Shown here in pieces: positions 1-14,505 of a stretch of DNA of 38,352 nucleotides. Position numbers and translations under genes: made by a program. The stretch comes from Planctomycetota bacterium. Lineage in GTDB: Bacteria; Planctomycetota; MHYJ01; JACQXL01; JAVHLO01. Under the pieces are notes generated by a model. That model ran no database searches. It was not told the origin of the DNA and saw only the letters and a program-made list of their open reading frames with translations. The stretch lies in contig JAVHLO010000001.1 in NCBI GenBank assembly GCA_031082105.1, forward strand, positions 1-38,352. Direction: 5' to 3'. The first letter of the stretch is position 1, and the number at the start of each line of letters is the position of its first letter.

Positions 1-1714
1 AGTGGCGGAAGTGTTCGAGCATCACCTCGGTCTTCTGTGCGATGTTGTGCGGGTGCAGGCTCATGAACCGCGCCAAGGCCCGTGCTGCCTTCTTCTTGTC
101 CACCTGCGGGTCGTCCTCGATGGACTTGATGAGCCGGTAGTAACGCTTGTAGGTCGTGTAGTTCTTGAGTACGTCGAGGATGAAGTGCTCGTCGATGGCC
201 TGCCGCATGCTATAGAGGTGGAACGGGACCGGCTTTCCGTCCACACTTGGACGCCCGAAGACCTCAAGCGTCTTGTACTTCGGCGTGGCAGTGAAGGCGA
301 AGAAACTGATGTTCGGCTGCCTCCCGCGCTTCGCCATCGTCTTGAGGATTTCCTCCTCGTAGTCCGGCAGACCCTCCGACTCCGCCTTCGCCTGGGCCTC
401 TTCCTGGATGGTCTTGCGGGCAAGTACCTTCTTGAGTTCCGTCGCCGACTCGCCGCCTTGGGAGCTGTGCGCCTCGTCCACGATGACCGCGTACTTCCGC
501 TTCGGCAGGTCGCCGATCTTCTCCGTCACGAACGGGAATTTCTGAAGCGTGGTCACGACGATGGGCACCCCGGAGCCGAGCGCTTGTGCGAGCTGGGTCG
601 AGTCCTCGTCAATCTTCTGCACCACGCCCTGCTTGTGCTCGAACTGGTAGATGGTGTTCTGCAACTGCTGGTCGAGGACGAGCCGGTCGGTAACGACGAT
701 GATGGAGTCGAAGACTTTCTCGTCCTTTTCGGTATGGAGGTTGGCGAGCCGGTGCGCGAGCCATGCGATGGAGTTCGACTTGCCGCTTCCGGCCGAGTGC
801 TGGATGAGGTAGTTCACGCCCGTGCCGGCGCATCGTGCGTCGGCCACGAGCTTCCGCACGCAGTCGAGCTGGTGGTAGCGAGGGAAGATCATCGTCTCCT
901 TCTTCACCGTCCTCCCGCCCAACCGCTTCTCCTCGACCTGGATATGGATGAACCGCGCGATGATATCGAGGAAGCTGTCCCGTTGCCAGGCCTCCTCCCA
1001 GAGGTAGACGGTCTTGTGCCCGTGCGGGTTCTCCGGGTTACCCGCGCCGGTGCCGTTCCCCTTATTGAAGGGCAGGAAGTGCGTGGAGTTCCCGGCAAGG
1101 CGAGTCGTCATGTAGACCTCGTCCGGATCAACGGCGAAGTGCACCAGCGTCCGCTTCCTGAACTGGAAGATGAGGTCGTTCGGGTCACGGTCGGTCTTGT
1201 ATTGGTGGATGGCGTTCTGCCAGGTTTGGCCGGTGAGCGGGTTCTTCAACTCCGCTGTGGCTACGGGGATGCCGTTCAAGCCCAGAACAACATCGAGCGT
1301 GCCGCCGTGTTTCTCCGAGTAGCGCACCTGGCGGGTGATCGTGAGCCGGTTGGCTGCGTAGAGCGCCTGGGTCTCGGGGTTGAGACCGCTTGCGGGGGCG
1401 AAGTAGGCCGCGCGGAAGAGTTTGCCGAAGCACTTGAACCCGTGCCGGAGGACCTTGAGGCACCCTTCGGCGTCCGAGTCTAACGCGGCGCAGAGGGCGT
1501 CGAGGAGCGTCTCCTCGGCCTTCTCCTTCCGGACGTTCTGGAGGTAGGCCCATTCCTTGGGCTGGGTCTCGCGGACGAAGGCAAAGAAGACACCCGTATC
1601 AAGGGCACGGACCCGGTCGAAAGCCTCGCGGTCGCCCTTCACGTAGCCGCCCGCCGCGAGCAGGTGTTGCTCGATGGCGGTTTCGAAGGCTATCTCCCTG
1701 TGTTGACTCGGCAT
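1..1714 (-). CDS. hsdR: Type I restriction endonuclease R subunit (HsdR), N-terminal 571 codons; the C-terminus lies beyond the left window edge
   Basis: Absent from the supplied ORF track because it is open at the window edge. My own reverse-strand translation from ATG 1714..1712 reads MPSQHREIAFETAIEQHLLAAGGYVKGD... It has Walker A QHSAGSGKSNS (codons 770-802) and DEAH box KYAVIVDEAHSS (461-499). A GGGGAGA RBS sits 7 nt upstream. The listed + ORF 2..1483 is its codon-aligned antisense shadow. Confidence 0.9.
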   Translation of the reverse strand, partial: MPSQHREIAFETAIEQHLLAAGGYVKGDREAFDRVRALDTGVFFAFVRETQPKEWAYLQNVRKEKAEETLLDALCAALDSDAEGCLKVLRHGFKCFGKLFRAAYFAPASGLNPETQALYAANRLTITRQVRYSEKHGGTLDVVLGLNGIPVATAELKNPLTGQTWQNAIHQYKTDRDPNDLIFQFRKRTLVHFAVDPDEVYMTTRLAGNSTHFLPFNKGNGTGAGNPENPHGHKTVYLWEEAWQRDSFLDIIARFIHIQVEEKRLGGRTVKKETMIFPRYHQLDCVRKLVADARCAGTGVNYLIQHSAGSGKSNSIAWLAHRLANLHTEKDEKVFDSIIVVTDRLVLDQQLQNTIYQFEHKQGVVQKIDEDSTQLAQALGSGVPIVVTTLQKFPFVTEKIGDLPKRKYAVIVDEAHSSQGGESATELKKVLARKTIQEEAQAKAESEGLPDYEEEILKTMAKRGRQPNISFFAFTATPKYKTLEVFGRPSVDGKPVPFHLYSMRQAIDEHFILDVLKNYTTYKRYYRLIKSIEDDPQVDKKKAARALARFMSLHPHNIAQKTEVMLEHFRH

Positions 1715-2070
1715 CGGTGCGTCTCCCCTGCAAAATGTCGGGCGGTCATACCACAAGTGCAGTCAAAGCGCACTTCGGGGCGCTCACTGAGCACTCCAAG
1801 AGCCCGCCACCTGTCAAGTGTACTTTGGTCAGTTTTCGCATACAGTCTATTGCCTGAATCTGGCGTACGTGGCGACAATAGTTGCTTGACCAATATAGAG
1901 TTGCGACACTGGGCTATTGAGAAAGACACTGTCCCGGCACTTACACCTCAGCACTGGGTAGTCACTCGAGGATTTCGTTGAGACGCATCCATGCCACACA
2001 AAACGTCTTGTGTCGCACGGAACGTAATTCATGCGACTATCCGTTGTGGTTCGTTCCCGATTGCCGCGCT

Positions 2071-2092
2071 CTCGACTACATAGCCTTACACA
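2071..2092. repeat. 22-nt direct repeat copy 1 (ctcgactacatagccttacaca) in the spacer upstream of hsdR
   Basis: Matches 2211-2232 at 20 of 22 positions in the same orientation, 140 bp apart, inside a non-coding stretch that looks lower in G+C. Confidence 0.6.
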
Positions 2093-2210
2093 AACGCGAC
2101 CGGATGCGAGTATTGAACAAACACGCGCTACCACTACATATTGTGTCCACGCACTTCATCTATACCACATGTAGGATCTAGTGGCGTGGTCTGCAAGATC
2201 AGCATCGTCG

Positions 2211-2232
2211 CTCAACTACATCGCCTTACACA
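2211..2232. repeat. 22-nt direct repeat copy 2 (ctcaactacatcgccttacaca), 6 nt beyond the stop codon of the AlbA_2 gene
   Basis: Matches 2071-2092 at 20 of 22 positions. Confidence 0.6.
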
Positions 2233-2238
2233 TGTTTT

Positions 2239-3696
2239 CTAGGCCCATGATGGAACGTAGCTTGCGCTCCTGCTGGAACCCGTGCCCTGGCCATGCGGTT
2301 TGACGCGTCCGGCGCAAATCGCGTCTCGAATGATACTGGAGGCCAAGGGGTAGCTGGAATCCTTGATGCCCAAACGATTCCGTAGCGATGCATTGGTCAT
2401 TCGTTTGCCGGATACGTACTGAAGACAGGCATGCTGGTAGCACGCCCGAACGCGCTCCTCACGGTTCATCTGAGCAAACTTGCGAGGACCGTAAAGGACC
2501 GCGACCGTGCTGTTTCCCGCAACTCGGAAGTCCGGCGCGGGGAGCTGAAAAAGCTCCACACCTACTATCACTTTGTCGATGCCGCTGCCGCGCTCTTCGC
2601 AGATGCTGACTCTGCGCATCAGTGCGGCCAACATCTCGTTTCGCGACTGAGGCGGCTCGTCAATGAACCTCTGCGTGTCAATCAGCGGGATGCCTGGGTT
2701 GGATATTTCTATCCGATCGGTGAATATCTCAACCATCGGGCCCGCGCCGGTGACATTGAAGTCCTGGTGGATGAGCGCGTTGGCGACCAGTTCCCGGACG
2801 GCGATTTCAGGATACGTACGGACTTCTTTCCGAAGCGCCTGGCCGATCTGCTCGTTCTGCGGAAGCTGGTCGTCAATGTAGGAGACCGCGCCCTCGAAGC
2901 CGATGGCGTAGCCCTTGCTTCCGGCCTGTTCCTTGATCGTCTCGACGCGATCACTGCCTTTGTAGATGATGACGCGCAGCGCTTTCCTGGCGAGGCGGTC
3001 GAAGTCTGTGAGGTTTCGCGCGAAAAGGATCGCGCCCACGTTGCTCATGTCGTATTTGCCGCCTGAGGTGGGCGCGATCACCTTCTCAGAAGCTAGTCGC
3101 TCCAAAATTGCCGCACGATTTTCCGGCAAGGGTTGCCCGATCAGCCGAAAGTAGTTCGGGTAGTCGAGAAGAGCAAGAACTTCGTCAGATGTCGCGCCCT
3201 CTCTGGCAGTGCCTTGTTCATAGGGTCTCCGGTCGAACCGACGCCAGAGTTCCCGTTCCTTTTCGGGGTGGTCCCGGAGTTTCTTCTTGTAGCTGCCGAT
3301 GCGAATCCATTCTGTGCCTCTGAATCCCACGGGTTTGTGCGATGCAGGCTGGATTTCGAAGAGCACAACGTGCTTCCTGTCCAGTTCGTCTTCGTGGATG
3401 CGCACGTCAACCCGTGGGTCCAATTGAGTCAGCAGCCAGTTCTCAAGTTCCTCATTGCCGACCTTCGCTTGGCGGGGACGGAAAGTTGTGCCGACGACCT
3501 GACCGGACTTGTCGTCCACTCCCCAAAGGACATAGGCGCAGGGCTTGTCATGCAGGGCAGCGGAGTTCGATAGCGCCGAAACATACTCCCCGATCTCGAC
3601 AGGATCGGCCTTACTGTGCTTGCGTTCGACCCATTCCGTTTCCTTGGGCAGGGCGACAAGCTCACGAACCAGACTCTCAAGTTGTGTCTTGTCCAT
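2239..3696 (-). CDS. AlbA_2 (Schlafen-like divergent AAA) + HATPase_c_4 + C-terminal wHTH protein, usually annotated as a putative transcriptional regulator or RecG-like ATP-binding protein
   Basis: 485-aa ORF. The N-terminal region ETEWVERKHS...ALSNSAALHDKPCAYVLWGVDDKSGQVVG fits the AlbA_2 pattern. RELVANALIHQDFNVTGAGPMVEIFTDRIEISNPG fits HATPase_c_4. Its ATG shares 1 nt with the hsdS stop (TAATG, 3694-3698). Confidence 0.8.
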   Translation of the reverse strand: MDKTQLESLVRELVALPKETEWVERKHSKADPVEIGEYVSALSNSAALHDKPCAYVLWGVDDKSGQVVGTTFRPRQAKVGNEELENWLLTQLDPRVDVRIHEDELDRKHVVLFEIQPASHKPVGFRGTEWIRIGSYKKKLRDHPEKERELWRRFDRRPYEQGTAREGATSDEVLALLDYPNYFRLIGQPLPENRAAILERLASEKVIAPTSGGKYDMSNVGAILFARNLTDFDRLARKALRVIIYKGSDRVETIKEQAGSKGYAIGFEGAVSYIDDQLPQNEQIGQALRKEVRTYPEIAVRELVANALIHQDFNVTGAGPMVEIFTDRIEISNPGIPLIDTQRFIDEPPQSRNEMLAALMRRVSICEERGSGIDKVIVGVELFQLPAPDFRVAGNSTVAVLYGPRKFAQMNREERVRACYQHACLQYVSGKRMTNASLRNRLGIKDSSYPLASSIIRDAICAGRVKPHGQGTGSSRSASYVPSWA

Positions 3697-5042
3697 TAGG
3701 CCGCCTCCCCGCGAACATCAATCTTTCCCGTCACCGCCGCCGAGATGAGCGCCGTCCGGTACTCGCGGAGCGTGGCGATGCTCTCGCGGACCTTGGCGGC
3801 CAATGCGTCAATCCGACTGGCCTCTTGATTCAGATATTCAGCGATAGCGTCTTGTTCAATTCGCGGGGGAAATGCAAAACGATAAACGCGCAGTTTTTCA
3901 GCGGTCAGGTGGGCGATTGTGTTGGGATTCCCATGCGCGATGAAAATGCCGCTCCAAGCCGCCGCTCGCATGACATAGTAGAAGTAACGAGGAAGGTCGC
4001 GGTCTGTTCGTGGACGCACCCGATGGATGGCTTTCTGAAAACCGCAAACAGGCAGTTCGCCGCGCCAAATTGCGGTCCGGCCGACTTCCCCGCCCTCGCA
4101 TATCAGAAGGTCGCCCTCTTTGAGGGTGTACCGGTTGCGCTCGTCGGGATGGAAGTCCATCTCATCCAAGTTCTCGGCATTCACGACATTCCATTGAACA
4201 TCAATATTTCGCAGGTATGGAAGGAGGTGTTCTCCAGTAATGCGTTTTGCGTCGAGCATTTTCCCCAACTGGACAATGTAGCGGGCGTAAAGAGGGGCCA
4301 CCTCCCAGTGCGCCGGAATCCTGCCGAGCCACTCGACGCCGGAATCCTTCATCTTCGCGTTGGGGTCGAGACCCTTGATGACGGCGTGGCTGATGAGTGC
4401 GGCGCGCTTCTCTTGGAGGAGTTCAATCTGCCGCTCCTTCTTCCCGATGAGCCCGTCTATCCGCGCCGTCTCGCGGTCGAGAAACGCCGCGATGGCGCGC
4501 TGCTCTGTCAGCGGCGGGACAAGAAACAGGGCATTGTCGAGGCCATACTTACTTAAGCCGTACCGCGTGATCCCCGTCGCCTCCACTCGGAACTGGTCAT
4601 TTATCCCGCGCGCAGAGAAGGCGCGGAAGAGATACCTGCCATCCATGCAATCTGATATCGCACGAACTTTGGCGAGATGATAGCCGCAGAGTACGCCTTC
4701 GAGTTGCTCGGCAACGAAGGCGGGGACGGCGATGTCATCCCATTCTTCGGAATCCTTCGTCACCAGTACGTCGCCATCCTTGATCGTAAACCGCCGGATT
4801 TCTTCCGGGGTGGCGGTAGCCGCCATGAAGTCCAGTTCGGAAGTGATGTAGTCGTGGTAGTACACGTCAATGTAGTTGCAGAGGCGTACTGGTTGCTCGC
4901 CCTCCACTGTATGCTTGTCAACGCTACTGAAGCTGGCTCTGGAAACGTGCTTCAGCCTGCGAATCTCCCAATGTGCCGGGATTCCTCCCAGCCACTCCAC
5001 GCCGGAGGGGCGGTATTCGGGATACGGTTTCCGCGCTCTCAT
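3696..5042 (-). CDS. hsdS: Type I R-M specificity subunit (HsdS) with two target-recognition domains
   Basis: Two duplicated conserved helices: LPPLTEQRAIAAFLDRETARIDGLIGKKERQIELLQEKRAALISHAV and FPPRIEQDAIAEYLNQEASRIDALAAKVRESIATLREYRTALISAAVTGKIDVR. The GVEWLG.IPAHWE motif occurs twice. The start is placed at ATG 5042..5040, which overlaps the upstream stop (TGATG). The longest ORF extends to 5099. Confidence 0.9.
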   Translation of the reverse strand: MRARKPYPEYRPSGVEWLGGIPAHWEIRRLKHVSRASFSSVDKHTVEGEQPVRLCNYIDVYYHDYITSELDFMAATATPEEIRRFTIKDGDVLVTKDSEEWDDIAVPAFVAEQLEGVLCGYHLAKVRAISDCMDGRYLFRAFSARGINDQFRVEATGITRYGLSKYGLDNALFLVPPLTEQRAIAAFLDRETARIDGLIGKKERQIELLQEKRAALISHAVIKGLDPNAKMKDSGVEWLGRIPAHWEVAPLYARYIVQLGKMLDAKRITGEHLLPYLRNIDVQWNVVNAENLDEMDFHPDERNRYTLKEGDLLICEGGEVGRTAIWRGELPVCGFQKAIHRVRPRTDRDLPRYFYYVMRAAAWSGIFIAHGNPNTIAHLTAEKLRVYRFAFPPRIEQDAIAEYLNQEASRIDALAAKVRESIATLREYRTALISAAVTGKIDVRGEAA

Positions 5043-5836
5043 CAGAATATTGCTCGCTGATAGGTCTTGGGCGGCCAAAACACTCCGAGAACCATCCACG
5101 CGTTGAATGGGAACCGGGTCCCCATGAAGAACCGCGTGTCGCGTTCAGGTGAGCACATCTCCTCCATGTATTTCCGCTTCACACTCTTGGCTGCCTCGTC
5201 GTCGGACTGGAGTCGCTCTGATTCTTTGAGAAAAAGAACTCCAAGCTCCCAGTCCAGAATCGTGGCAGTGTGAGGCTTGTCACTGTCCGGACACTCGAAA
5301 ACAAAGCGAAACTCGAAAGGCAACTTGCGCAGAGGCTTCTGCGACTCGCCAAACAGCCTGAGTTGCAGAAAAAGCTCCTGCCACTCGGGTTTCCAATCCT
5401 GTTCTGCGGGAGCGATTTCAAGGTCAAGCACCTTTGAAGGTCTGACAATCCCTAGAGATGTTCTATCAGAATCGTAGAGCGCTTTCAACTCGTTCAAGGT
5501 GCGATGAGGAACGCGGTCAATGACCTCTCTTCGCGCCCGCCAACCATCTTCGGTAGACAGGGGCTCACCAAGCACTCGCAAGGTGTCCAAGCTCGGTCGC
5601 CGGCTCTCCTTGCGGTTGTCGTTGCCCTCCCCACGATCCTCCAACTCTACTTCGACCCACTGATACTTGTGAAACCGCTGTTTTCTCGGTCGGTATCGGT
5701 AGTCTACAGGATAGAGACGCACCCATTGGCACTCCTCGGTAATCCCTGCTGCGCAGACCAACTCCTGATACGCCGTCGAGGGATGCGGATAGGTCATGAC
5801 CGTGACAAGCAGCTTGGTCAGCGTCTTCTTTGTCAA
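5042..5836 (-). CDS. Uncharacterised 264-aa protein (orphan) embedded in the Type I R-M operon
   Basis: Clean ORF with protein-like composition: MTKKTLTKLLVTVMTYPHPSTAYQELVCAAGITEECQWVRLYPVDYRY... The TTG start overlaps the upstream stop (TTGA, 5833-5836) and its stop overlaps the hsdS ATG. I recognise no catalytic motif or family. An alternative ATG start is at 5797. Confidence 0.7.
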   Translation of the reverse strand: MTKKTLTKLLVTVMTYPHPSTAYQELVCAAGITEECQWVRLYPVDYRYRPRKQRFHKYQWVEVELEDRGEGNDNRKESRRPSLDTLRVLGEPLSTEDGWRARREVIDRVPHRTLNELKALYDSDRTSLGIVRPSKVLDLEIAPAEQDWKPEWQELFLQLRLFGESQKPLRKLPFEFRFVFECPDSDKPHTATILDWELGVLFLKESERLQSDDEAAKSVKRKYMEEMCSPERDTRFFMGTRFPFNAWMVLGVFWPPKTYQRAIF

Positions 5837-6702
5837 TGCCGAATCTCCAAATGCCGGACAGGCAAGCTAGTGCGTGCCGCGAGCAGCGCCGCAAGCCGTG
5901 AACGATGACAGTGCTCCGGATTGGTCTCCACGCATACGAGTACCGACGGCCTGCCTGACATAAGTTGGGAGACGAGGGCAATCTCCTTGGACGCCCTGTT
6001 AAGGACTTGGGTCTCGTAGAACCGAAAGAGGTTCTCGTACTCTCGCGGTGTCTCAAGAGAGTCTCGCGCATCGGCAGGAACCCCGAGCGCAGGAAAATGA
6101 ACGTAATCCAAACCCAAGAAACCGCATATCCGCGCAAGTGTAGACTTGTGAAACCCATACCGACGTGAAACCGGATTGCCTCGAACGTCTATCAGCCGTT
6201 CAATTCCAGCTTGAAGAAGACCATTCAAGAAGCTGTCCACGGAACGACCCTCGTAGCCGGCGGCATAAACCGCACAGGTAGCCTTCGGCAACGTCGTTCT
6301 TGGTTTCCGGATGCTCTTCACAGTGAACCAAGGATGTTTTTCATAGACATATTTAGTCAGCGAATCGGCAGACCTTCCGCCATGCCCCAGGAGTGTCTCC
6401 CCGATATCGCGCTGTACGCTTGGCGCAACTCCCGCTACGGCATCCGTGCCCGCGGACGTGACTCGCCAGCGCTTTGGGTCGGGTTCGTCGAGAAACCCCT
6501 GCCGGACCAACGTCGAGACTTCCTGGAAAAGACAAAAAGAGAACGGGCCATGATGATACGGAAGGAAGTCGTAGAACGCGTTTCCTCCGCTGGAGGCCGT
6601 CTCATGTCGGAGAATGAATGCCCACTTCACAACATGGAGATGTGATGCCTCTCCTCCGGCCTTCCCCAGCAGCGCTAGAAGGACTTTCTGCCGATGAATC
6701 AC
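5833..6702 (-). CDS. Fusion protein: N-terminal wHTH-like domain (possibly SocA/GepA Panacea-like, tentative) + C-terminal DUF488 domain
   Basis: 289-aa ORF. The C-terminal half, VYAAGYEGRSVDSFLNGLLQAGIERLIDVRGNPVSRRYGFHKSTL...LVCVETNPEHCHRSRLAALLA, matches the DUF488 pattern as I remember it, including the C-E-x(n)-CHR signature. The N-terminus carries YDFLPYHHGPFSFCLFQEVSTLVRQGFL. The GTG start overlaps the hsdM stop (GTGA, 6699-6702). Confidence 0.75.
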   Translation of the reverse strand: MIHRQKVLLALLGKAGGEASHLHVVKWAFILRHETASSGGNAFYDFLPYHHGPFSFCLFQEVSTLVRQGFLDEPDPKRWRVTSAGTDAVAGVAPSVQRDIGETLLGHGGRSADSLTKYVYEKHPWFTVKSIRKPRTTLPKATCAVYAAGYEGRSVDSFLNGLLQAGIERLIDVRGNPVSRRYGFHKSTLARICGFLGLDYVHFPALGVPADARDSLETPREYENLFRFYETQVLNRASKEIALVSQLMSGRPSVLVCVETNPEHCHRSRLAALLAARTSLPVRHLEIRH

Positions 6703-8771
6703 TCTTCCACCTCCCCGAGCATATCGGCGATCTCACGCTCGATCTTCTTGATGTCCGCCTCGATCTCCGCAAGCGGGCGCGGCGGGACGTACTTGTAGAA
6801 GTACCTGTTGAAGTTGATCTCGTAGCCGGTCTTGGTCTTGGACTCGTCCACCCAGGCATCCGGCACGTGGGGCAGGACTTCGCGCTTCATGTATTCGCCC
6901 ACATCGTCCTTGAGCGGCACGTTCTCGTAGTCGCGGAGTTCCGGGTCCGGCTCAGGGTTGCCTTTGGCGTCCGTGCACACATCGGCGGTCTCGTCCCGTT
7001 CTGAGAGCGCATCCATGACGGCCTTGAAGACGGGCGCGGACGCTTTCACTCCAACGGCGTCTAATGCCTTTTTGACCATTTCCGCGAAGGCCTCACGATT
7101 CTTCACGACGCCTGCCTGCGCCCCGTTTCGCGGGGCAGGCAGCCCGCTCGACGCGAGGGACTGCAGGGCAGCTATGATGGCTTCCTGGGTTTTCCGGCCC
7201 TCTGCAATCTCCGCTTCCGCGCCCCTGGTATCTTTGCGTTTGCGGCTTTCCACCAGCGCCTGGAACGGTCCGGCCTCGCGTAGCCGCGCCAGCCGCTCGT
7301 CGGTCACGGCAAAGTTGAGCCGGAGCGGGCGCTCCACGGTGATCCGGCGATAGCCAAAGTCCTCGTTGCCAAAGACGCGAACGTGCTCGTCGCCTGCCTT
7401 TGCATCGCGCCTAGATGGGTCCTTGAGTTCCCCATAGAAGCGGGTGATCTCGTCCCGCTGAGATTCGCAGATTTCGTTGCGCTTGTTGCCGAGAGACTTC
7501 CGCATCTTCTTGAAGAAGGTAGTGGCGTCCACGAGCTGGATTTTCCCCCGGCGGCTCTTCTCCTTCCGGTTTGTCACGATCCACAGGTAGGTGTAGATGC
7601 CGGTATTGTAGAAGAGCTGGTCGGGCAACGCAACGATGGCCTCGAGCCAGTCGTTCTCGATGATCCAGCGGCGGATTTCGCTTTCGCCGGAACCCGCGCC
7701 GCCCGTGAAGAGCGGCGAGCCGTTGAAGACGATTGCCAGCCGGGTTCCGCCTTCTTTCGGATCCTTCATCTTGCTGATCATGTGCTGGAGGAAGAGGAGC
7801 GAGCCGTCGTTGATCCGCGGCAGACCCGCGCCGAAGCGGCCGCCGAATCCCTGCTCCTCGTGCTCCTTGCGGATGGCGTCCTCCTCCGGCTTCCACTCCA
7901 CGCCGAAGGGGGGATTGGCCAACATGTAGTCGAACCGCTTTCCGGCGTGGTGGTCCTCGGTGAAGCTGTTGCCGAAGCGGATGTTGTCGAGGCTCTGACC
8001 TTTGATGAGCATGTCCGAGCCGCAGATGGCGTAGGCCTGGGCGTTGTAGTCCTGGCCGAAAACCTTGAGGCTCGCGTCCGGGTTCAGCTCGCGGAGGTAA
8101 TCCTCCGCGACCGAGAGCATACCGCCCGTGCCACAGGCCGGATCGAACAGCGTCTTCACGATGCCCTTCTTCGTGAGCACCTCACCATCCGGCAGGAAGA
8201 GAAGGTTGACCATCAGGCGGATTACCTCGCGCGGCGTGAAGTGGTCGCCCGCCTCCTCGTTGGACGCCTCGTTGAACCGCCGGATGAGGTCCTCGAAGAT
8301 GTAGCCCATCTCGATGTTCGGCACCTTGTCCGGGTGCAGGTCGATCTCGCAGAACTTGGAGACGACGAGGTAGAGACGGTCCGCCTTGTCGAGCCGGGCG
8401 ATGTGCTCCTCGAAGCCGAAATGCTCGATGATCTCGCGGGTGCGCCCGGAGAAGCCCTTGATGCAATTGACCAGGTTCGCCGCGATGTTGTTCGGGTCGC
8501 CCTTGAGCTTCTCAAAGGTGAAACGGCTCGTGTTGAAGAACGGCACGCCGGAGACCTTGCAGAGGATGGGGTCGAGGTTCTTCACCTTGCCGCCCTGCAG
8601 GCTCTTGAGCTTCTCCAGTACTTTCTCCTTGGTGGGTTCAAGGACGCAGTCCATGCGCCGCAGGACGGTCATGGGGAGCATGACGTCCTTGTATTGGTTC
8701 GGGCGGTACGGCCCGCGCAGCAGGTCGGCGACCTGCCAGATGAAGCTCACCTTTTCGCCGAAGTTGTTCAT
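6699..8771 (-). CDS. hsdM: Type I R-M DNA methyltransferase subunit (HsdM), N6-adenine type, 690 aa
   Basis: Starts MNNFGEKVSFIWQVADLLRGPYRPNQYKDVMLPMTVLRRMD (HsdM N-terminal domain). Has the SAM motif DPACGTGGML and the catalytic motif LANPPFGVEWK. ATG 8771..8769 has a GGAAGGA RBS about 10 nt upstream. The 81 extra N-terminal codons of the listed ORF (up to 9014) read through palindromic repeats and are rejected. Confidence 0.9.
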   Translation of the reverse strand: MNNFGEKVSFIWQVADLLRGPYRPNQYKDVMLPMTVLRRMDCVLEPTKEKVLEKLKSLQGGKVKNLDPILCKVSGVPFFNTSRFTFEKLKGDPNNIAANLVNCIKGFSGRTREIIEHFGFEEHIARLDKADRLYLVVSKFCEIDLHPDKVPNIEMGYIFEDLIRRFNEASNEEAGDHFTPREVIRLMVNLLFLPDGEVLTKKGIVKTLFDPACGTGGMLSVAEDYLRELNPDASLKVFGQDYNAQAYAICGSDMLIKGQSLDNIRFGNSFTEDHHAGKRFDYMLANPPFGVEWKPEEDAIRKEHEEQGFGGRFGAGLPRINDGSLLFLQHMISKMKDPKEGGTRLAIVFNGSPLFTGGAGSGESEIRRWIIENDWLEAIVALPDQLFYNTGIYTYLWIVTNRKEKSRRGKIQLVDATTFFKKMRKSLGNKRNEICESQRDEITRFYGELKDPSRRDAKAGDEHVRVFGNEDFGYRRITVERPLRLNFAVTDERLARLREAGPFQALVESRKRKDTRGAEAEIAEGRKTQEAIIAALQSLASSGLPAPRNGAQAGVVKNREAFAEMVKKALDAVGVKASAPVFKAVMDALSERDETADVCTDAKGNPEPDPELRDYENVPLKDDVGEYMKREVLPHVPDAWVDESKTKTGYEINFNRYFYKYVPPRPLAEIEADIKKIEREIADMLGEVEE

Positions 8772-8863
8772 GATACGCGTTCCTTCCCGCGAGTTGAGAG
8801 GCCGTGCGGGCAGTTGTAGCAGTTTGCTCCGGCTTCTGTCAAGCAAAAGCTGCCCGCCCCATA

Positions 8864-8908
8864 CCCTCACCCCCGCGCTCTCCCAGGGGGAGAGGGTTAG
8901 GGTGAGGG
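8864..8908. repeat. Family A palindromic repeat (ccctcacccccgcgctctccc-aggg-ggagagggttagggtgaggg)
   Basis: Near-perfect inverted repeat. Related copies lie at 8952-9030, 29013-29045, 38125-38178, 38258-38291 and 38295-38348. Confidence 0.85.
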
Positions 8909-8951
8909 CGTTCTGTTTGCGCCGCGGGAGCGACCTTTGCCACAGGGCGTC

Positions 8952-9030
8952 CGTTCGTCCCTCACCCCCGCCCTCTCTCCCGACTTCGTCGGGATGCCGC
9001 CCCGGCGGCACCAAAGGGAGAGGGAGAAGC
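8952..9030. repeat. Family A repeat split by an internal insert
   Basis: cgttcgtccctcacccccgccctctctccc ... gggagagggag. The left part is the reverse complement of the gggagagggcgggggtgagggacgaacg core seen at 38125-38178. Confidence 0.75.
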
Positions 9031-9038
9031 GCTCCACT

Positions 9039-10217
9039 TTACCGCCAGCAGGGCATGGTGTCGACCATGGGGTCGTTCGTGACGTTCGACTTCTTGTAGT
9101 CGGCGACGTTCATCACGAAGATGTCCTGGTTCCCGTCGCCGATTATGCGCACGAACGCGACCTTCGTGCCGTCGGGCGACCAGCATGGCATCGAGTCGTG
9201 AAAGTCGTTCTTCGTCATGCGCCGGTGCCTCGACCCGTCGGCGTTCATGATGTAGATCTCGTAGTTCTTGTCGCGCGTCGACGCGAATACGATCTTCGAT
9301 CCGTCGGAATTGTACCTCGGCGTGTAGTGGTCACGCCCCGGGGCCAGCTTCGCGATCGCCCCGGAGCCGCTGCGCTTGAGAATCTCTTCCGGATCGCCTT
9401 TCTTCTTGAAATGCGCAAACACGATGGTCGAACCGTCCGGCGAGACGCTCGGATTCCAGCAGCTCACAAGCGGCGCGTCCGCCTTCAGCTCCGTAAGCCC
9501 CTGCCCGTCCCGCTGGATCACGCTGAGCCCGCGCGGCGGTTCCTTGTTCCCGCCGCCAAGGTCCGTACAGACGGTGGTCGCGATCTTCTTGTTGTCCGGG
9601 AACCACGACGGCGCGCCCTCGATCGCCTCGCTGTTCGTCAGCCTGCGCTCGTGCTTGCCGTGCACGTCGATGATGAACAGGTCGCGTTTCTGGCCCCGAA
9701 AAGAGACGAACGCCACCCACCTGCCGTCGCGCGAGACCGCGGGTTCCGCATCGGAGTTTTCGTTCCTCGTGAGCTGTTGAACGTCCATCCCGTCCGGGGC
9801 CATCCGGAACAGCTCGTCCTCGCCGTCGCGTGAGGAGACGAAGTAGATGCGATCCGTGACCGGCTCGATCTTGTCGAGGTGTTCGGGCCAGCCGAGCGAT
9901 AGAAGACAGCGCCGGCACTGCACCTCGGTCGCGGCGCACGATTGGCAGATGACCTCTTCGAACTTCGGATCGAGGTTCTCCCGGCTGCAGATGGCGCAGG
10001 CCTTCGGGGCTTCGAACGAGCCCGGCTCCCGCTCCGCCGCCAGTTCCGCGGTGCACGTGTCGCAGAGCGTGCGCACGGGCGGCTTTTCCGCTTCGCCCGG
10101 CCCGGTCTCCTCGGCGGACACGGGCACACGCGCGCCCGCACAGGCCAGAAAAAGGATCACGGCGCATAGAAAGCCTCGCCGCAAACTTGCCGGATGTGAC
10201 CATTCGGGATATGTCAT
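9039..10217 (-). CDS. Secreted TolB-like PD40 beta-propeller protein with an N-terminal double zinc-ribbon (4x CxxC) module
   Basis: Signal-like N-terminus MTYPEWSHPASLRRGFLCAVILFLACAGA. CxxC motifs CDTC, CAIC, CQSC and CRRC. Repeated PD40-type motifs (SRDGRWVAF, SPDGSTIVF, NSDGSKIVF, SPDGTKVAF). ATG 10217 has a GGAGAG RBS. The longest ORF starts at GTG 10250. Confidence 0.8.
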   Translation of the reverse strand: MTYPEWSHPASLRRGFLCAVILFLACAGARVPVSAEETGPGEAEKPPVRTLCDTCTAELAAEREPGSFEAPKACAICSRENLDPKFEEVICQSCAATEVQCRRCLLSLGWPEHLDKIEPVTDRIYFVSSRDGEDELFRMAPDGMDVQQLTRNENSDAEPAVSRDGRWVAFVSFRGQKRDLFIIDVHGKHERRLTNSEAIEGAPSWFPDNKKIATTVCTDLGGGNKEPPRGLSVIQRDGQGLTELKADAPLVSCWNPSVSPDGSTIVFAHFKKKGDPEEILKRSGSGAIAKLAPGRDHYTPRYNSDGSKIVFASTRDKNYEIYIMNADGSRHRRMTKNDFHDSMPCWSPDGTKVAFVRIIGDGNQDIFVMNVADYKKSNVTNDPMVDTMPCWR

Positions 10218-10259
10218 CTCTGTTCTCTCCAAACGTGAATCGACCACCACGGCCCGGTC

Positions 10260-13200
10260 TCACGTGTTGACACCGCCGCACCTTGCGGAAAGCGCCTCGC
10301 CTATTCTCTCGATCTCCCGCAGGATATTTGTCTGTTTGAACTCCTCCGCCAGGGACCGGGCCTTCTTCAGCTCGACCCCGGCCTTCTCCTTCTCGCCCAG
10401 TCCGGCGTGCGCCTCCGCAAGCACTGCGTACGCTTGCGCCATCTCGGACCGCCCCTGCAACTCTTCCAGGAGCCTCAGCCCCGATTCCGCATCAGCCAGC
10501 GCGCGCGCGTAGTCGCCGGTCCTGGCGCATGCGAAGCCGATCTCAACGAGCACGCGCGCTTCGTCTCCTTTCTTCCCCAATTCTCTGAAAATCGTCAGCG
10601 CCTTCCGCGAGAGCTCCAGGGACCGGCCGTAGTCGCCCCGGCTCTGATGAACACCGCCGATGTTGCCGATGGCCCGCGCAATGCCCGCCCTGTCGCCAAG
10701 CTCGGTCGACAGGCGGAGGTGTTCTTCATAATGTTCCAGGGCGCGAGCGGTGTCGCCCTGGAGCGCGTACACGCTGCCCATGTTGCCCACCGTCCGCGCC
10801 TTGCCGGCCTTGTCGCCCATCTCCTCGGCAAGCCGCAATTCCTTCCGGTAGCAGTCCATGGCGTGCACATAGTCGCCCATGTCCCAGTACACCAGCCCCA
10901 TGTTGCCGATGGCACGCGCCATCCCGGCCTTGTCGCCGAGTTCCTCCGTGAGTTGCAGGTTCTTTCGCAGGCATTCCATTGCGCGCTGACTGTCGCCCTG
11001 GTGCCTGTAGGCGAGCCCGATGTTGCCGACGGCGCTGGCCTGACCCGATTTGTTTCCCAGCTCTTCCGCGATCGCCAGGTCTGCGCGGTAACACTGCATG
11101 GCGCGTTGGTGGTCGCCCTGGTTCGCATAGACGTTGCCGATGTTGCCCAGCACGCGCGCCTTGCCGGCCTTGTCGCCGCGTTTTTCGCAGAGGCGAAGGG
11201 TGCGCTCGTAGTACTCCATGGCGCGCGCGTAATCGCCCTGAAGCCTGCACACGATTCCCATGTTCAACAACGCGGACGCGATTTCTGATTCATCGCCAAT
11301 GCTGTCGGCGAGCTCGAGGTTTCTCCGGTGATACTCCATCGCGCCGACGTAGTCGCCCCGCAGCCGGCGCAGGATTCCCGTGATGCCCATGGCGGCCGCG
11401 CGCCCCTTGAGAAAGCCGATCTGCTCGGCCAGCCGTTCCGCCGAACCCGCGATCCTCTCCGCGTCGCCCATTCGACCGTGCCGCCTGTAGATGAATGCGA
11501 GCGCCACTTGCCCGCCGACTACAAGCTCCCGGGCCGAACGCGCCTGTCCGCCGCCGCCGGCCGCTTCAGCGCTCCGGCCGGCGATCGACAACCCCTCCTC
11601 AGTGTCGCGGACGCCCTCCGCCCACATGCCGATGAAATCACAGACCCTGGCCCGGTCATACAATGCCCTGACGAGCCGGAGCTCACTGCCGGGCAGGGCG
11701 CGGCATCTGTCGACGAGCCGCGAGTAGAGTTCGATCGCCTCGCGGTTCTTGTAGTCCTCAGCCGCGTGTGCCGCGGCCTTCTCCAGGTAGTCAATCTCCT
11801 TGTCGAGGCACTCTCCCTTTCCGAAGTGGTCGGCGAGCTCGCGGCAGAACTCCTTCCGGCCGGGAAAGAGCTCCTCGATGACTTCCGCAGCCAGTCTATG
11901 GAGGTGCGCGCGCACGGACGGCGGCGGCAGGTGATAGATTGCCTTCTGCATCAGCACATGCCGGAACAGGTACGCATCCTCGGCCGACTCCGGCAACGCA
12001 AGGCGGATCCCGGCCGCGGCGCGGTCCGCCTCGACCCCGCGCGCCCCGCGTTCGGGCTGGACGGCCTGGGGAGACTTCTCCGCAACGATCAACCGCTCCT
12101 GTTCCGCGCCGGGCACGACGTCGCCCGGCTCGCCCTCGTACTCGCGGCTCCGGCCCAGGACGCGTTCAAGCACCGTCCTCAAAAAGCGCACGCCCAGTGT
12201 GGCGGCATACTTCAGCCCTTCGCGCAGGTTCGCCTCGAGCCGGTCGAACCTGGCAAGGAGGAGGTCTTCGAGCGTGGCGGGCAGGCGGCCCATCTCGCCG
12301 ATAAGCCTCGTTTCGCCCCGGCTCTCTACGAGCAGCGGCGTGCCGCGCCACCCCGTGGCCAGGTGAAGGCTCATCTGTTCCAGGAAGAACGGGTTCCCCC
12401 CGGTTCGTTCCATGAGGAAGTCAAGCAGCTCCGGCGCCGGGTTCGCGTATCCGCGCGCCTTCTCCAGGAATATCGTGCGCGCCTGCGACTGGTCGAACCC
12501 CGTCAGGATTATTTCATCGACGCGCGCGTCCATTTCTGCGTCCACGCGCGGCCTCGAACCGTCTTCTCCGAACCGGGACGTGAGCACAACGACGAACGGC
12601 ACTGAGCGCACGTTTCGCGTCATGATCTTTACCCATTCCGCGGTCGAAGGCTCCAGCCAGTGCGAGTCTTCCACCTCCAGCACGAGCGGCGACTCGTGGG
12701 CGAGCGCCCTTACCAGCTCCTTTGCCGCGTAGAGCTGGTTCTCGTGTCTCAGTTTCGGATCGTCGACCTGCCCGTACAGCGAGAACGGGGCGGGGCTCCC
12801 GTCCGGCCAATGGCAATTGACGAGCGAACCGAGGAAGGAGACTGCGCGCGTCAGCTCGCGCCGGGTCTCTTCCGGGACGGCGGGGTTCCGGGCGAGTTCT
12901 TCGACGCGGCTCTCGACTTTCCGCCGTTTCTCCTCTTCGGGAGTAAGGGCGCTCACCGCGAAGAAATGCTCGAGGCCTCTCGTCAGCGGTCCCAGCCCGC
13001 TGTCGCGCTCGAGGCAGGGCAGGTGGAGCCAGTGCCAGGGTCGCGTCGCGCGTTCGAGGTCCTTGCGCAACTCCTGGACAAGCCGCGTCTTGCCCATCCC
13101 GGGTTCGCCGTAGATATAGACAAGCCCGGCGAACCTTCCTTCTTCCGCGGGTCTCAGCAGCCCGCGGAGACGCCGCAGTTCCTCGCGGCGGCCGATCATC

Positions 13201-14462
13201 GGGCCCTCGTAGACGAGGGCGCCGGCGCGCGGGATCGATCGTTCGAAACCGAAAACCTTCTCCGGCTTCGATTTTCCCTTGAGCGGACGACATCCGAGCT
13301 CGCGGAAATCGAAGAACTTCCGGGCCGAATCGTGGACGCGCTCGGAGACGAGCGCCTCTCCCCAATCCGCGGCGGACATCAGCCGGGCGGAGGTGTTGAC
13401 GCAATCGCCGATGCACGTCCACTCGTTTCTGAACTCGCCGCCGGTCGCGCCGGAGTATGCCAGCCCCGAATCGAGTCCGGCCTTCAGGCGGGGATGCGCG
13501 GGCGTTTCACCGGGCAGGCGCGAACGCATCTGCTCGACGAAGTCCAGCGCCGCGCGGGCCGGGTTCTCGATTGCCCTCGGGGCGCCGAAGAAACAGAGGA
13601 TGGTCATCCCCTTGTCGCCGAAATCGAGCTTGTTGAACGTCCCGCCGCGCTGCGCGGCCAGTTCGCGCGCGAGGCTCAATATCCGGCCGATGTCTTCGCC
13701 CCGCGCGGTCGCCGATTCGGTCCCCTGCATTGCCGGCACGCGGGCGTCCGCGCCCGCGGCCGCCGCGTCGATCTGGATGAACACCGAGACGACCGGCTTG
13801 ATCTCGGGTTCTTTGCCGAGGTTCAGTATCTCGTCCTGGATGAATGCGTCGAGGGTCTCGGGATTGTTTGGCGGCCCGAAGTCCCGGCTCTGCTCGATGC
13901 GATCTTCGGTCCCTGCGACGAGCAGTCCGCGGGCGCCGGCGGGGATCGACTCCGCGAGCCGGATCTCGCCCGCGGCGGCGGAGCCGACCAGCCTGCACGC
14001 CGTCGCGATCGGCTCACCGAGAAAGTAGTACCCGCATCGGCCGAACGGGTCGATCGCGATCTCCCATTCGATCGTCCCGGCAGCGATCCCGCATCTCGCC
14101 TTGAAATCGAACGTGCCGTCCGGCGTATCCTGCCTGCCGATCTCATCAAACGCCCGGACGATGCCCGCGGCTGCTGAGATTGCGCGGGAGCCGTCGTCAT
14201 CGTCGGGAAACACTGCGGTGAACCCGTCGCCCGCGAACCCGGTGACGATCCCGCCACGCGCGAGAACGGCGTTGATGCACGGATCGAAGACACGGCGCAG
14301 GTTCCGGCTCATGAATTCCGCGCCGCGCTCGCCGAGCGAGAACGCGGTCTCCATGAGGGGAGTGAAGCCGGAGATGTCGACGAACAAGGCGGCGGCCCGG
14401 AGCTCGCCGCGGAGGTCCCGGGCCCGGTATCGCTTCTCAATGAAATCAGGAACATATCTCAT
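10260..14462 (-). CDS. Tandem class III adenylate/guanylate cyclase domains + AAA_16 (STAND-type) ATPase + long TPR array, about 1400 aa
   Basis: First cyclase domain (CHD1): LFVDISGFT ... GFAGDGFTAVF. Second (CHD2): FIQID ... DFGDKGMTILCFFGAP ... CIGDCVNTSARL. Walker A is YIYGEPGMGKTRLV. The C-terminus has about eight 40-residue TPR units (GNxGxVYxxQGDxxRAMxxY). ATG is at 14462; an alternative TTG is at 14501. Confidence 0.85.
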   Translation of the reverse strand: MRYVPDFIEKRYRARDLRGELRAAALFVDISGFTPLMETAFSLGERGAEFMSRNLRRVFDPCINAVLARGGIVTGFAGDGFTAVFPDDDDGSRAISAAAGIVRAFDEIGRQDTPDGTFDFKARCGIAAGTIEWEIAIDPFGRCGYYFLGEPIATACRLVGSAAAGEIRLAESIPAGARGLLVAGTEDRIEQSRDFGPPNNPETLDAFIQDEILNLGKEPEIKPVVSVFIQIDAAAAGADARVPAMQGTESATARGEDIGRILSLARELAAQRGGTFNKLDFGDKGMTILCFFGAPRAIENPARAALDFVEQMRSRLPGETPAHPRLKAGLDSGLAYSGATGGEFRNEWTCIGDCVNTSARLMSAADWGEALVSERVHDSARKFFDFRELGCRPLKGKSKPEKVFGFERSIPRAGALVYEGPMIGRREELRRLRGLLRPAEEGRFAGLVYIYGEPGMGKTRLVQELRKDLERATRPWHWLHLPCLERDSGLGPLTRGLEHFFAVSALTPEEEKRRKVESRVEELARNPAVPEETRRELTRAVSFLGSLVNCHWPDGSPAPFSLYGQVDDPKLRHENQLYAAKELVRALAHESPLVLEVEDSHWLEPSTAEWVKIMTRNVRSVPFVVVLTSRFGEDGSRPRVDAEMDARVDEIILTGFDQSQARTIFLEKARGYANPAPELLDFLMERTGGNPFFLEQMSLHLATGWRGTPLLVESRGETRLIGEMGRLPATLEDLLLARFDRLEANLREGLKYAATLGVRFLRTVLERVLGRSREYEGEPGDVVPGAEQERLIVAEKSPQAVQPERGARGVEADRAAAGIRLALPESAEDAYLFRHVLMQKAIYHLPPPSVRAHLHRLAAEVIEELFPGRKEFCRELADHFGKGECLDKEIDYLEKAAAHAAEDYKNREAIELYSRLVDRCRALPGSELRLVRALYDRARVCDFIGMWAEGVRDTEEGLSIAGRSAEAAGGGGQARSARELVVGGQVALAFIYRRHGRMGDAERIAGSAERLAEQIGFLKGRAAAMGITGILRRLRGDYVGAMEYHRRNLELADSIGDESEIASALLNMGIVCRLQGDYARAMEYYERTLRLCEKRGDKAGKARVLGNIGNVYANQGDHQRAMQCYRADLAIAEELGNKSGQASAVGNIGLAYRHQGDSQRAMECLRKNLQLTEELGDKAGMARAIGNMGLVYWDMGDYVHAMDCYRKELRLAEEMGDKAGKARTVGNMGSVYALQGDTARALEHYEEHLRLSTELGDRAGIARAIGNIGGVHQSRGDYGRSLELSRKALTIFRELGKKGDEARVLVEIGFACARTGDYARALADAESGLRLLEELQGRSEMAQAYAVLAEAHAGLGEKEKAGVELKKARSLAEEFKQTNILREIERIGEALSARCGGVNT

Positions 14463-14505
14463 GGCGGGCTCTTCGCGCTGCGATTCCGCAAGAAGCGGCA
14501 ATGCT

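Follow-up and report, generated by a model that had tools for sequence, protein, structure and literature searches.

A Type I restriction-modification operon of a Planctomycetota bacterium carries a PDC-M19 gene pair, a candidate toxin-antitoxin-like or abortive-infection module

A Type I restriction-modification (R-M) operon in contig JAVHLO010000001.1 contains two genes that belong to the phage defence candidate family PDC-M19. The window, which is the whole stretch of DNA analysed here, is one 38,352-bp contig from the metagenome-assembled genome of a member of the Planctomycetota. The genes on its minus strand are ordered hsdM, M19A (encoding 289 residues), M19B (264 residues), hsdS and a gene for an AlbA_2 protein, followed beyond a 524-bp gap by hsdR (Table 1). 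M19A combines a putative divergent Panacea domain with a DUF488 domain, and M19B is a predicted tandem OB-fold protein resembling binders of single-stranded DNA (ssDNA). Based on the domains, the gene order and the genomic context, we favour with moderate confidence the reading that the pair is an autonomous, mobile toxin-antitoxin-like or abortive-infection module, which rides in the R-M operon and in which M19B is the effector and M19A its keeper.

PDC-M19 gene pair and its genomic context

The 289-residue protein matches the PDC-M19A model PDLC04505 of PADLOC-DB v2.0.0 (E-value 6.9e-73, 243.6 bits), with residues 1-280 aligned to positions 1-289 of 294 in the model. The 264-residue protein matches the PDC-M19B model PDLC04508 (E-value 1.1e-76, 255.9 bits), with residues 6-263 aligned to positions 3-268 of 269. 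Both models are matched over their full length by adjacent genes on the same strand in A-then-B order, and the embedding in a Type I R-M operon is the same as at the discovery of the family. The window pair does not differ from PDC-M19 at the family level and is another member of it. PDC stands for phage defence candidate and M19 for multi-gene number 19 (Payne et al. 2024, bioRxiv 10.1101/2024.01.29.577857). Payne, Hughes, Fineran and Jackson gathered cassettes located within BREX, DISARM and Type I R-M systems; the filtering out of known defence, mobility and housekeeping families left 145 untested "guilt-by-embedding" candidates; their Table S8 lists cassette CAS_00089 (FAM_02799>>FAM_02993, count 174) with the remark "Assign as candidate PDC-M19" (bioRxiv 10.1101/2024.01.29.577857).

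The original prediction, made from the sequence of the window, described the cassette as novel and its 264-residue product as an orphan matching nothing. However, the cassette was already in PADLOC-DB, having been discovered by the same embedding logic, and the supposed orphan belongs to a large, highly conserved family, as evidenced by the full-length model match and by no fewer than 1200 relatives after clustering at 90%. The sighting is real, not new, and the window locus adds one more example to a catalogued candidate family. The published entry contains no domain dissection or mechanism; the interpretation of the domains as Panacea, DUF488 and dual OB, as well as the variants with exchanged partners, are added here. 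In the literature searched, we found neither the domain assignments nor the candidate catalytic residues and natural variants described below.

The 120 top homologues of M19B are 63-71% identical to it, and the top relatives span Planctomycetota, Cyanobacteria, Chloroflexota and other phyla. An exhaustive profile search expanded the M19B family to 2401 clusters at 50% identity, and 664 homologues of M19A were found, nearly all of them approximately 289 residues long. The close family, with 60-70% identity, is overwhelmingly chromosomal and occurs in Planctomycetota, Cyanobacteria and Chloroflexota. Identity this high across unrelated phyla implies that the genes were probably transferred horizontally.

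A scan with two conserved-peptide patterns, using one genome per species, matched 198 of 185,579 species, which is a lower bound, and the genomic context was counted in 80 of the 198 loci encoding M19B. In 75 of the 80 loci, M19A is the gene immediately upstream of M19B and has the same orientation; a contig end truncates two of the remaining five. The idea that homologues of the two genes co-occur is thus borne out. A start codon for M19B lies between -60 and +15 nucleotides (nt) of the M19A stop codon in 71 of the 72 measurable pairs; 34 pairs have a 4-nt overlap, and the conserved core of M19B begins at most 46 nt past the M19A stop in every measurable pair. Because the junction is kept in all but one of these pairs, the translational coupling of A to B appears to be a property of the family that is independent of R-M. 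Four overlaps in a row, as in the window, are unremarkable within an operon, whereas the conservation of the A-to-B junction elsewhere exceeds chance.

The surroundings of the pair are variable. Clustering of the flanking open reading frames (ORFs) revealed no other gene family in more than nine of the 80 loci. The 125 neighbours within 2.5 kb, classified with Pfam and PADLOC, include six phage integrases, three N6_Mtase or Type I methyltransferases, and TIR, AAA_21, SMC_N and protein kinase genes; these tallies comprise the 25 commonest families, and an enrichment in defence islands is not derivable from them. Integrases, transposases, other defence-type genes, plasmids and a prophage immunity region are found among the surroundings of PDC-M19. 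An hsdM gene adjoins the pair in only about four to five of the 80 loci. It is positioned directly upstream of M19A in loci L028, L061 and L074 and next to M19A on the opposite strand in L048, and these neighbours are drawn from at least two HsdM families. Since the partner is constant, the neighbours are variable and hsdM is rare, the pair is best described as a mobile, self-contained unit, for which R-M operons are only an occasional location. The earlier suggestion of a discrete passenger module outside the R-M core agrees with the constancy of the pair in changing surroundings.

The layout of the window recurs in L074 (positions 7058-14728, from an uncultured bacterium), where hsdM, A, B, hsdS and hsdR follow one another with overlapping junctions and without an AlbA_2 gene. 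The HsdM and HsdR proteins of L074 and the window are 51-56% and 52% identical, respectively. The hsdM gene of L074 is split into two overlapping ORFs, owing to a frameshift or an assembly error.

Domain architecture and natural variants

The AlphaFold2 model of M19A (mean pLDDT 92.6) is composed of two parts. Residues 1-127 are modelled as a winged-helix core with a helical extension, and Foldseek comparisons of this domain identified weak matches to MarR-type winged-helix proteins. A homologue search with the N-terminal 138 residues alone returned nothing, in contrast to the 664 homologues detected with the full-length query. A tblastn search of plasmids with the N-terminal half gave two weak matches, one to a Haloarcula "DUF4065 domain-containing protein" and the other to the C-terminus of a Sulfolobus HsdS. 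The profile of the M19A family aligns in hhalign with the Haloarcula protein QIO25564 over 129 columns (probability 98.5%, E-value 2.8e-15), and QIO25564 clears the cut-off of the Pfam family SocA_Panacea (PF13274) with 29.8 versus 25.7 bits. The same profile aligns with the last approximately 120 residues of the Sulfolobus HsdS (probability 98.9%, E-value 3e-17), which constitute a sub-threshold match to PF13274. The profile-profile alignment to a Haloarcula protein that itself passes PF13274 indicates that the N-terminal domain of M19A is probably a divergent Panacea (DUF4065) antitoxin-type domain, homologous to the family though unrecognised by its curated model. Of the former label "wHTH", the winged-helix core therefore stands in the model, and the identity of the domain is instead that of a putative Panacea.

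The Sulfolobus HsdS is a 574-residue Type I specificity subunit encoded by the Sulfolobus islandicus plasmid pYN01 (L088:2615-4339), and its C-terminal M19A-type Panacea-like domain contains the motif YVYxxYPxYTV. The presence of this fused domain in HsdS accounts for the match of the PADLOC HsdS model PDLC03184 to residues 23-133 of M19A.

The second half of M19A matches the DUF488 family PF04343 with an E-value of 1.8e-21 and 77.4 bits, well above the cut-off of 22.2, in the region where the original prediction expected it (residues 150-289, approximately). The protein also has a sub-threshold match to the model of the "active DUF488-N3" subclade. Four motifs are invariant in an alignment of 38 sequences: GYEG, DVRxNPxSRRxGFHK, C257-x-E259 and C265-H266-R267. 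In the model, the domain has a five-strand, Rossmann-like alpha/beta fold, in which the invariant residues cluster after the strands: strand 4 (residues 253-257) ends in C257, C265 and H266 are positioned in a loop, and the next helix opens at R267. The spacing of the cysteines and arginine is Cys-X9-Arg or Cys-His-Arg, not the canonical CX5R. The best Foldseek matches are a tetrapyrrole-methylase domain and Cys-dependent phosphatases of the protein tyrosine phosphatase (PTP) fold, all of them weak (E-values 0.045-0.16, and 0.06-0.16 for the phosphatases), and no solved DUF488 structure is among the matches. The modelled fold and the placement of the Cys and Arg residues resemble those of Cys-dependent phosphatases, which suggests a possible relationship to the rhodanese-phosphatase superfamily, from which M19A differs in its non-CX5R spacing and for which the Foldseek support is weak. 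The DUF488 family includes YeaO of Escherichia coli, and, to our knowledge, neither a biochemical activity nor a substrate has been established for any DUF488 protein. Our literature searches found no functional study of DUF488 and nothing under the name DUF488-N3. A different domain of unknown function, DUF4326, has been assigned to the rhodanese-phosphatase superfamily (PMC9503650).

The AlphaFold2 model of M19B (mean pLDDT 86.6) contains two beta-rich halves. The N-terminal barrel is formed by strands 4-15, 29-33, 38-41, 60-66 and 81-88, which are followed by a helix (96-106), and the C-terminal domain contains strands 128-131, 135-143, 174-181, 189-193, 235-240 and 247-253. Foldseek searches of the Protein Data Bank (PDB) matched the model to CST, RPA70, the Oxytricha telomere protein TEBP-alpha, Teb1 and RADX (E-values of approximately 1e-3, probability up to 0.99), and those of the viral models in BFVD to the baculovirus single-strand-binding protein LEF-3 (E-value 9e-5, probability 1.0). 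The alignments to such multi-OB proteins cover 250-300 columns with probabilities of 0.9-1.0, identities of 8-12% and TM-scores of about 0.3, and because of these low TM-scores, they constitute fold-level evidence only. M19B is thus predicted to be a tandem OB-fold protein resembling ssDNA binders, with RPA70, CST, TEBP-alpha, Teb1 and LEF-3 as the best structural matches of its model.

The only Pfam family that recurs among 118 diverse M19B members is DuOB (PF22557, Dual OB-containing domain), which is matched by five distant relatives below the gathering cut-off of 27 bits (best E-value 0.0019, 18.7 bits). The window protein has no Pfam match at permissive thresholds, DuOB included, and none in NCBIfam, and literature searches for DuOB returned only unrelated word matches. 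Across the wide family, residues Y16, P17, S20, E25, C28, R40, R47, D73, R75, E77 and S78 of the N-terminal half and R102, D195, W196 and E197 beyond the N-terminal barrel are nearly invariant. This constellation of polar and Cys residues suggests an active site more than a plain binding groove, and it distinguishes M19B from the multi-OB binders. Since the near-invariant residues exceed what a plain binding groove usually needs, M19B may have an enzymatic role. Two other features were considered and rejected. The halves of M19B share no detectable sequence repeat indicative of internal duplication (hhalign probability 0.3%), and a Zn or Fe-S site made from C28, C182 and C228 is not supported as a feature of the family, as only C28 is nearly invariant in the wide family.

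Relatives of M19B with 24-34% identity were found in 22 plasmid records, of which ten are typed as conjugative, and seven temperate Gordonia phage records contain them as well. On conjugative plasmids, namely pYS1 of Burkholderia, pRL8 of Rhizobium, a megaplasmid of Pseudomonas and a plasmid of Streptomyces, and in Gordonia phage Eviarto, the gene for a B relative with 30-34% identity is convergent with a gene for a standalone DUF488 protein of approximately 150-230 residues that lacks Panacea. The 3' ends of these gene pairs (L081, Eviarto genes 42-44; plasmids L083, L084, L085 and L086) mostly abut or overlap. The pair of pRL8 is located beside toprim and large helicase genes, and the flanks of the plasmid and phage relatives inspected contain no annotated R-M gene. 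The B gene of Eviarto is gene 43, which lies near the integrase and overlaps gene 44, annotated as the immunity repressor. Prophage defence genes have been shown experimentally at that position in another Gordonia phage, CarolAnn (PMC6426606). The likeness is limited to position, as the genes are not homologous: the CarolAnn proteins gp43 and gp44 constitute a RexAB-like membrane system (PMC6426606) and were ruled out as homologues of the phage-borne pair. The Gordonia phage "immunity repressor" gp44 was likewise rejected as a Panacea or M19A relative (hhalign probability 0.3%).

The position of A is occupied by a conserved protein of approximately 171 residues in three Anaerolineae/Chloroflexota loci (L027:9577-10089, L037:9562-10092 and L053:9604-10131). 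The protein has a weak ASCH match (E-value 0.0044, below the Pfam cut-off), and the exchange looks like partner swapping. In L027, a DNA methylase gene is located divergently upstream. The plasmid, phage and ASCH variants indicate that B is the constant member, that DUF488 is its usual partner in two arrangements, and that Panacea is specific to the 289-residue subfamily. The partnership of DUF488 with B, as judged from these arrangements, appears to be ancient and to survive rearrangement.

Proposed mechanism and alternative explanations

Based on the predicted domains and the conserved gene order, a mechanism of the PDC-M19 pair can be proposed. M19B, the effector, would bind and possibly process ssDNA such as replication or recombination intermediates. 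M19A would be made first from the shared message and hold M19B in check, by binding through its Panacea-like domain, by enzymatic reversal or pre-emption through its DUF488 domain, or by both. Phage infection or the loss of the cassette may tip the balance, so that DNA replication stops in the infected cell or that of the invader is prevented. The position within the R-M operon would provide co-expression and co-transfer of the pair as a second layer of defence, and the pair would be neither a subunit nor a regulator of the restriction enzyme.

Toxins are usually more conserved than antitoxins. The mean column identity of M19B is 71%, compared to 59% for M19A, and the M19B gene is split into two ORFs in three loci (L017, L037 and L065), whereas M19A is split in none of 75. 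The splits may represent decay of a toxic gene or errors in metagenome assembly, and their numbers are too small to distinguish the two; together with the higher conservation, they provide modest support for M19B as the toxin. SocB, the original partner of Panacea, is a replication-blocking toxin, which is a thematic parallel to an ssDNA binder. Another parallel is DarTG, a two-gene system sometimes found in Type I R-M loci, in which one protein acts on ssDNA and the other is an enzyme that undoes the damage. The likeness of DarTG to PDC-M19 would be one of working principle only, since M19B lacks an ADP-ribosyltransferase fold, M19A lacks a macrodomain, and there is no sequence or fold relationship.

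Panacea was described as a "hyperpromiscuous" antitoxin domain that binds dozens of unrelated toxins directly and thereby neutralises them (Kurata et al. 2022, PMC8832971). PanAT loci consist of two genes, usually with the antitoxin first, which were defined operationally as lying less than 100 nt apart and being conserved across species (PMC8832971). The same organisation is found in PDC-M19, where A precedes B in 75 of 80 loci, the junctions are close in 71 of 72 pairs, and no third gene is conserved. PDC-M19 resembles the PanAT systems, SocAB included, in the putative Panacea-type domain of the first gene, the overlapping two-gene locus distributed across phyla and the high mobility. It differs from them in that this domain is too divergent for Pfam and is followed by a C-terminal DUF488; the extensions described for Panacea are N-terminal only (HTH and PAD1; PMC8832971), and a word search found neither "DUF488" nor "OB-fold" in the main text of that paper.

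Several observations weigh against a toxin-antitoxin-like or abortive-infection function. Either protein, or neither, may be the toxic one. Our searches of the literature found no mention of PDC-M19 by name and no experiment on any member of the family, which Payne et al. left untested. The N-terminal half of M19A has no Pfam match even at E-values up to 10 and none in NCBIfam, so the Pfam model misses the window protein and the Panacea assignment comes from profile-profile homology. Searches of solved structures with single sequences and family profiles gave no meaningful match to M19A or M19B, and the OB-fold matches of the M19B model have TM-scores of only about 0.3 and E-values of 1e-3 to 1e-4. 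Housekeeping-type genes are numerous among the neighbours of the pair, for example those for OTCase, GUN4, peptidases and ABC transporters. The fusion of an antitoxin that acts as an enzyme to one that acts by binding would be unusual. An exchange of roles is conceivable, in which DUF488 would be the toxic part, Panacea its internal inhibitor and M19B the sensor. Since the standalone DUF488 partners of B lack Panacea, neutralisation by Panacea is not the ancestral logic of the DUF488-B partnership.

The last point is also the starting point for the alternative that the pair provides direct nucleic-acid-targeting immunity or DNA-end processing without toxin-antitoxin logic, which we consider unlikely. 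The OB protein would bring DUF488 to ssDNA or DNA ends, either of the invader or of the own cell, and DUF488 would remove or transfer a phosphate or sugar-phosphate group at the terminus, so that replication, ligation or packaging is blocked; Panacea would merely be a protein-protein or DNA-binding adaptor. The pairing of DUF488 with B even where Panacea is missing makes the enzyme-plus-OB combination the conserved core. The Rossmann-like model of DUF488, with a Cys closing a strand and Cys-His-Arg opening the next helix, and its best, though weak, matches, a tetrapyrrole-methylase domain and phosphatases of the PTP fold, are consistent with such an enzyme, as is the ASCH-like substitute for A in three loci, ASCH being a nucleic-acid-binding domain type. 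However, every structural match of DUF488 has an E-value above 0.04, and we know of no substrate of any DUF488 protein. Direct targeting also leaves unexplained why DUF488 is joined, across the whole 289-residue subfamily, to a domain hitherto described in antitoxins and why the genes overlap in antitoxin-first order.

The pair might serve the element that carries it, as an addiction cassette stabilising an R-M island, plasmid or prophage, or as a factor for ssDNA establishment or anti-defence in conjugation. This is improbable, given that the close family is overwhelmingly chromosomal and that the window copy is inside a defence operon, although the distant relatives on conjugative plasmids (ten of the 22 plasmid matches) and temperate phages, the integrases and transposases nearby, and the toprim and helicase genes beside the pair of pRL8 point in its direction. 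The early genes of conjugative plasmids classically include those for single-strand binders, and Panacea systems are classed as toxin-antitoxin modules, the plasmid versions of which act in maintenance. A service to the element overlaps with the favoured toxin-antitoxin-like or abortive-infection function, because a module may function in both addiction and abortive infection.

The original prediction offered three options for the pair: a backup abortive-infection or toxin-antitoxin-like module, a sensor cooperating with the R-M complex, and a regulator of restriction alleviation. The first is best supported by the comparative data. The other two are not supported as a general function, since hsdM adjoins only about four to five of the 80 pairs and no neighbour family exceeds nine. 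That the pair is a true Type I accessory, which senses anti-restriction proteins or modified DNA or controls restriction alleviation through HsdS or HsdM, is accordingly very doubtful. Type I genes are missing from the vicinity of more than 90% of the homologous pairs, no annotated R-M gene flanks those plasmid and phage relatives that were inspected, and HsdR, HsdM and HsdS suffice for Type I activity. A link to Type I enzymes is nevertheless weakly suggested by the recurrence of hsdM genes from at least two families next to A, by the shared layout and the 51-56% (HsdM) and 52% (HsdR) identity of L074, and by the Sulfolobus HsdS with its C-terminal domain of the M19A N-terminal type, together with the PADLOC HsdS match to M19A; the fusion in HsdS is limited to the Panacea-like domain and contains neither DUF488 nor B. 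Finally, a housekeeping accessory of DNA repair or replication inserted by happenstance, as might be imagined from the RPA-like OB-fold, some housekeeping neighbours and the LexA and SMC_N-type genes nearby in a few loci, is highly improbable in light of the patchy distribution (198 of 185,579 species genomes, as a lower bound), the probable horizontal transfer implied by 60-70% identity across unrelated phyla, the variable context, and the relatives on plasmids and prophages.

The toxin-antitoxin-like or abortive-infection function can be extended to a more specific proposal, which is tentative. The pair may represent a new Panacea-linked class, in which a tandem-OB effector poisons or marks ssDNA at replication forks and a two-headed keeper both binds the effector and enzymatically reverses its action. 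Equally speculative is the part assigned to DUF488 of the keeper, which would be a Cys-based, phosphatase-like fold acting on DNA ends or nucleotides. If true, the proposal would provide the first functional context for DUF488, a domain present even in E. coli, and the known range of the Panacea antitoxin domain would come to include enzyme fusions and Type I R-M specificity subunits. The HsdS-Panacea fusion raises the possibility that such modules are physically linked to Type I enzymes. The family merits a bench test, as it is widespread, strikingly conserved across phyla and cheap to test, and three of its parts are of biochemical interest: DUF488, the Panacea domain in an enzyme fusion, and the dual-OB protein with its active-site-like invariants. 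The domain boundaries, candidate catalytic residues and natural variants (standalone DUF488 and the ASCH-like partner) provide handles for experiments. A positive result would add a DNA-replication-directed mechanism of defence or toxicity and assign a function to DUF488.

Features of the operon and its surroundings

The four overlapping stop-start junctions that the original prediction recognised in the five-gene run are all present, read on the minus strand (Table 1). Its conclusion that there is no room for internal promoters went too far, as the overlaps leave promoters within the upstream coding sequence possible. A consensus scan for promoters and terminators gave nothing above shuffled controls and so provides no signal either way. 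The non-ATG starts of both middle genes are supported by aligned homologues that start at the same positions: all 37 aligned relatives of M19A begin at the column of its GTG, and relatives of M19B begin within a few residues of its TTG. The next ATG of M19B would cut into the invariant first strand.

Table 1 Features of the PDC-M19 cassette and the surrounding R-M operon in the window
Feature	Position	Strand	Description
PDC-M19A, 289 aa	5833..6702	-	Panacea-like N-terminal domain and DUF488
Putative Panacea (DUF4065, SocA-like) domain of M19A	6310..6696	-	Residues ~3-131, ends in motif YVYxxxPWFTV
DUF488 domain of M19A	5884..6240	-	PF04343 at residues 155-273; modelled alpha/beta domain ~145-289
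PDC-M19B, 264 aa	5042..5836	-	Predicted tandem OB-fold protein
M19B N-terminal OB-like beta-barrel (predicted)	5573..5827	-	Residues ~4-88, approximate, from secondary structure of the model
M19B C-terminal beta-rich domain (predicted)	5078..5455	-	Second OB-like half with helical inserts, residues ~128-253, approximate
hsdM/M19A junction	6702-6699	-	GTGA, GTG start of M19A overlaps hsdM stop
M19A/M19B junction	5836-5833	-	TTGA, 4-nt overlap, TTG start of M19B overlaps M19A stop
M19B/hsdS junction	5044-5040	-	TGATG, ATG of hsdS overlaps M19B stop
hsdS/AlbA_2 junction	3698-3694	-	TAATG, ATG of AlbA_2 gene overlaps hsdS stop
hsdM, Type I methyltransferase	6699..8771	-	Pfam N6_Mtase (E 7e-56), HsdM_N (E 9e-26)
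hsdS, Type I specificity subunit	3696..5042	-	Pfam Methylase_S in two stretches
AlbA_2 (Schlafen-type) and HATPase_c_4 protein, 485 aa	2239..3696	-	PF04326 (SLFN_AlbA_2, E 1.4e-19), PF13749 (E 1.4e-21)
Gap between AlbA_2 gene and hsdR	1715-2238		524 bp, GC 0.515 versus window mean of 0.62
hsdR, Type I restriction subunit	1..1714	-	N-terminal 571 residues, gene cut by contig end

The host R-M system contains HsdM, HsdS and HsdR and is complete save for the truncation of hsdR by the contig end. HsdM matches the PADLOC MTase_I model PDLC03029 (E-value 1e-294) in an alignment that begins at residue 82 of the mechanically called ORF, which reaches back to a TTG at 9014. The extension (8772-9014, minus strand) comprises 81 codons without homology support, and the true start is probably the ATG at 8771, from which the translation begins with MNNFGEK. 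A sigma-70-like match upstream of hsdM (9064-9036) is not above chance. HsdS matches the PADLOC Specificity_I model PDLC03105 (E-value 7e-118) and is aligned from the ATG at 5042, not from the GTG of a longer ORF at 5099. The hsdR gene, which the original prediction did not mention, lies downstream of the AlbA_2 gene beyond the gap and has the Pfam domains HSDR_N (E-value 1.3e-16), ResIII, SWI2_SNF2 and DEAD. The gap contains only short, probably spurious ORFs, and no Rfam family, tRNA, or promoter or terminator signal above chance was detected in it; the Rfam and tRNA scans of the window were empty. The GC content of the PDC-M19 cassette is 0.545-0.56, compared to 0.62 for hsdM and hsdR, which is consistent with an origin separate from that of the R-M genes.

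The AlbA_2 gene is a second passenger of the operon, outside PDC-M19, and seemingly not part of a catalogued system, because its PADLOC matches are only weak. Two giant STAND-type proteins are encoded on the minus strand just upstream of the R-M operon: one of 1413 residues (10260-14501) with adenylate/guanylate cyclase, AAA_16 and TPR domains, and one of 1397 residues (14506-18699) with Ser/Thr kinase, AAA_16 and TPR domains. A gene for a PD40 beta-propeller protein (9039-10250) separates them from the R-M operon. The giant STAND-type genes may belong to a conflict or signalling island.

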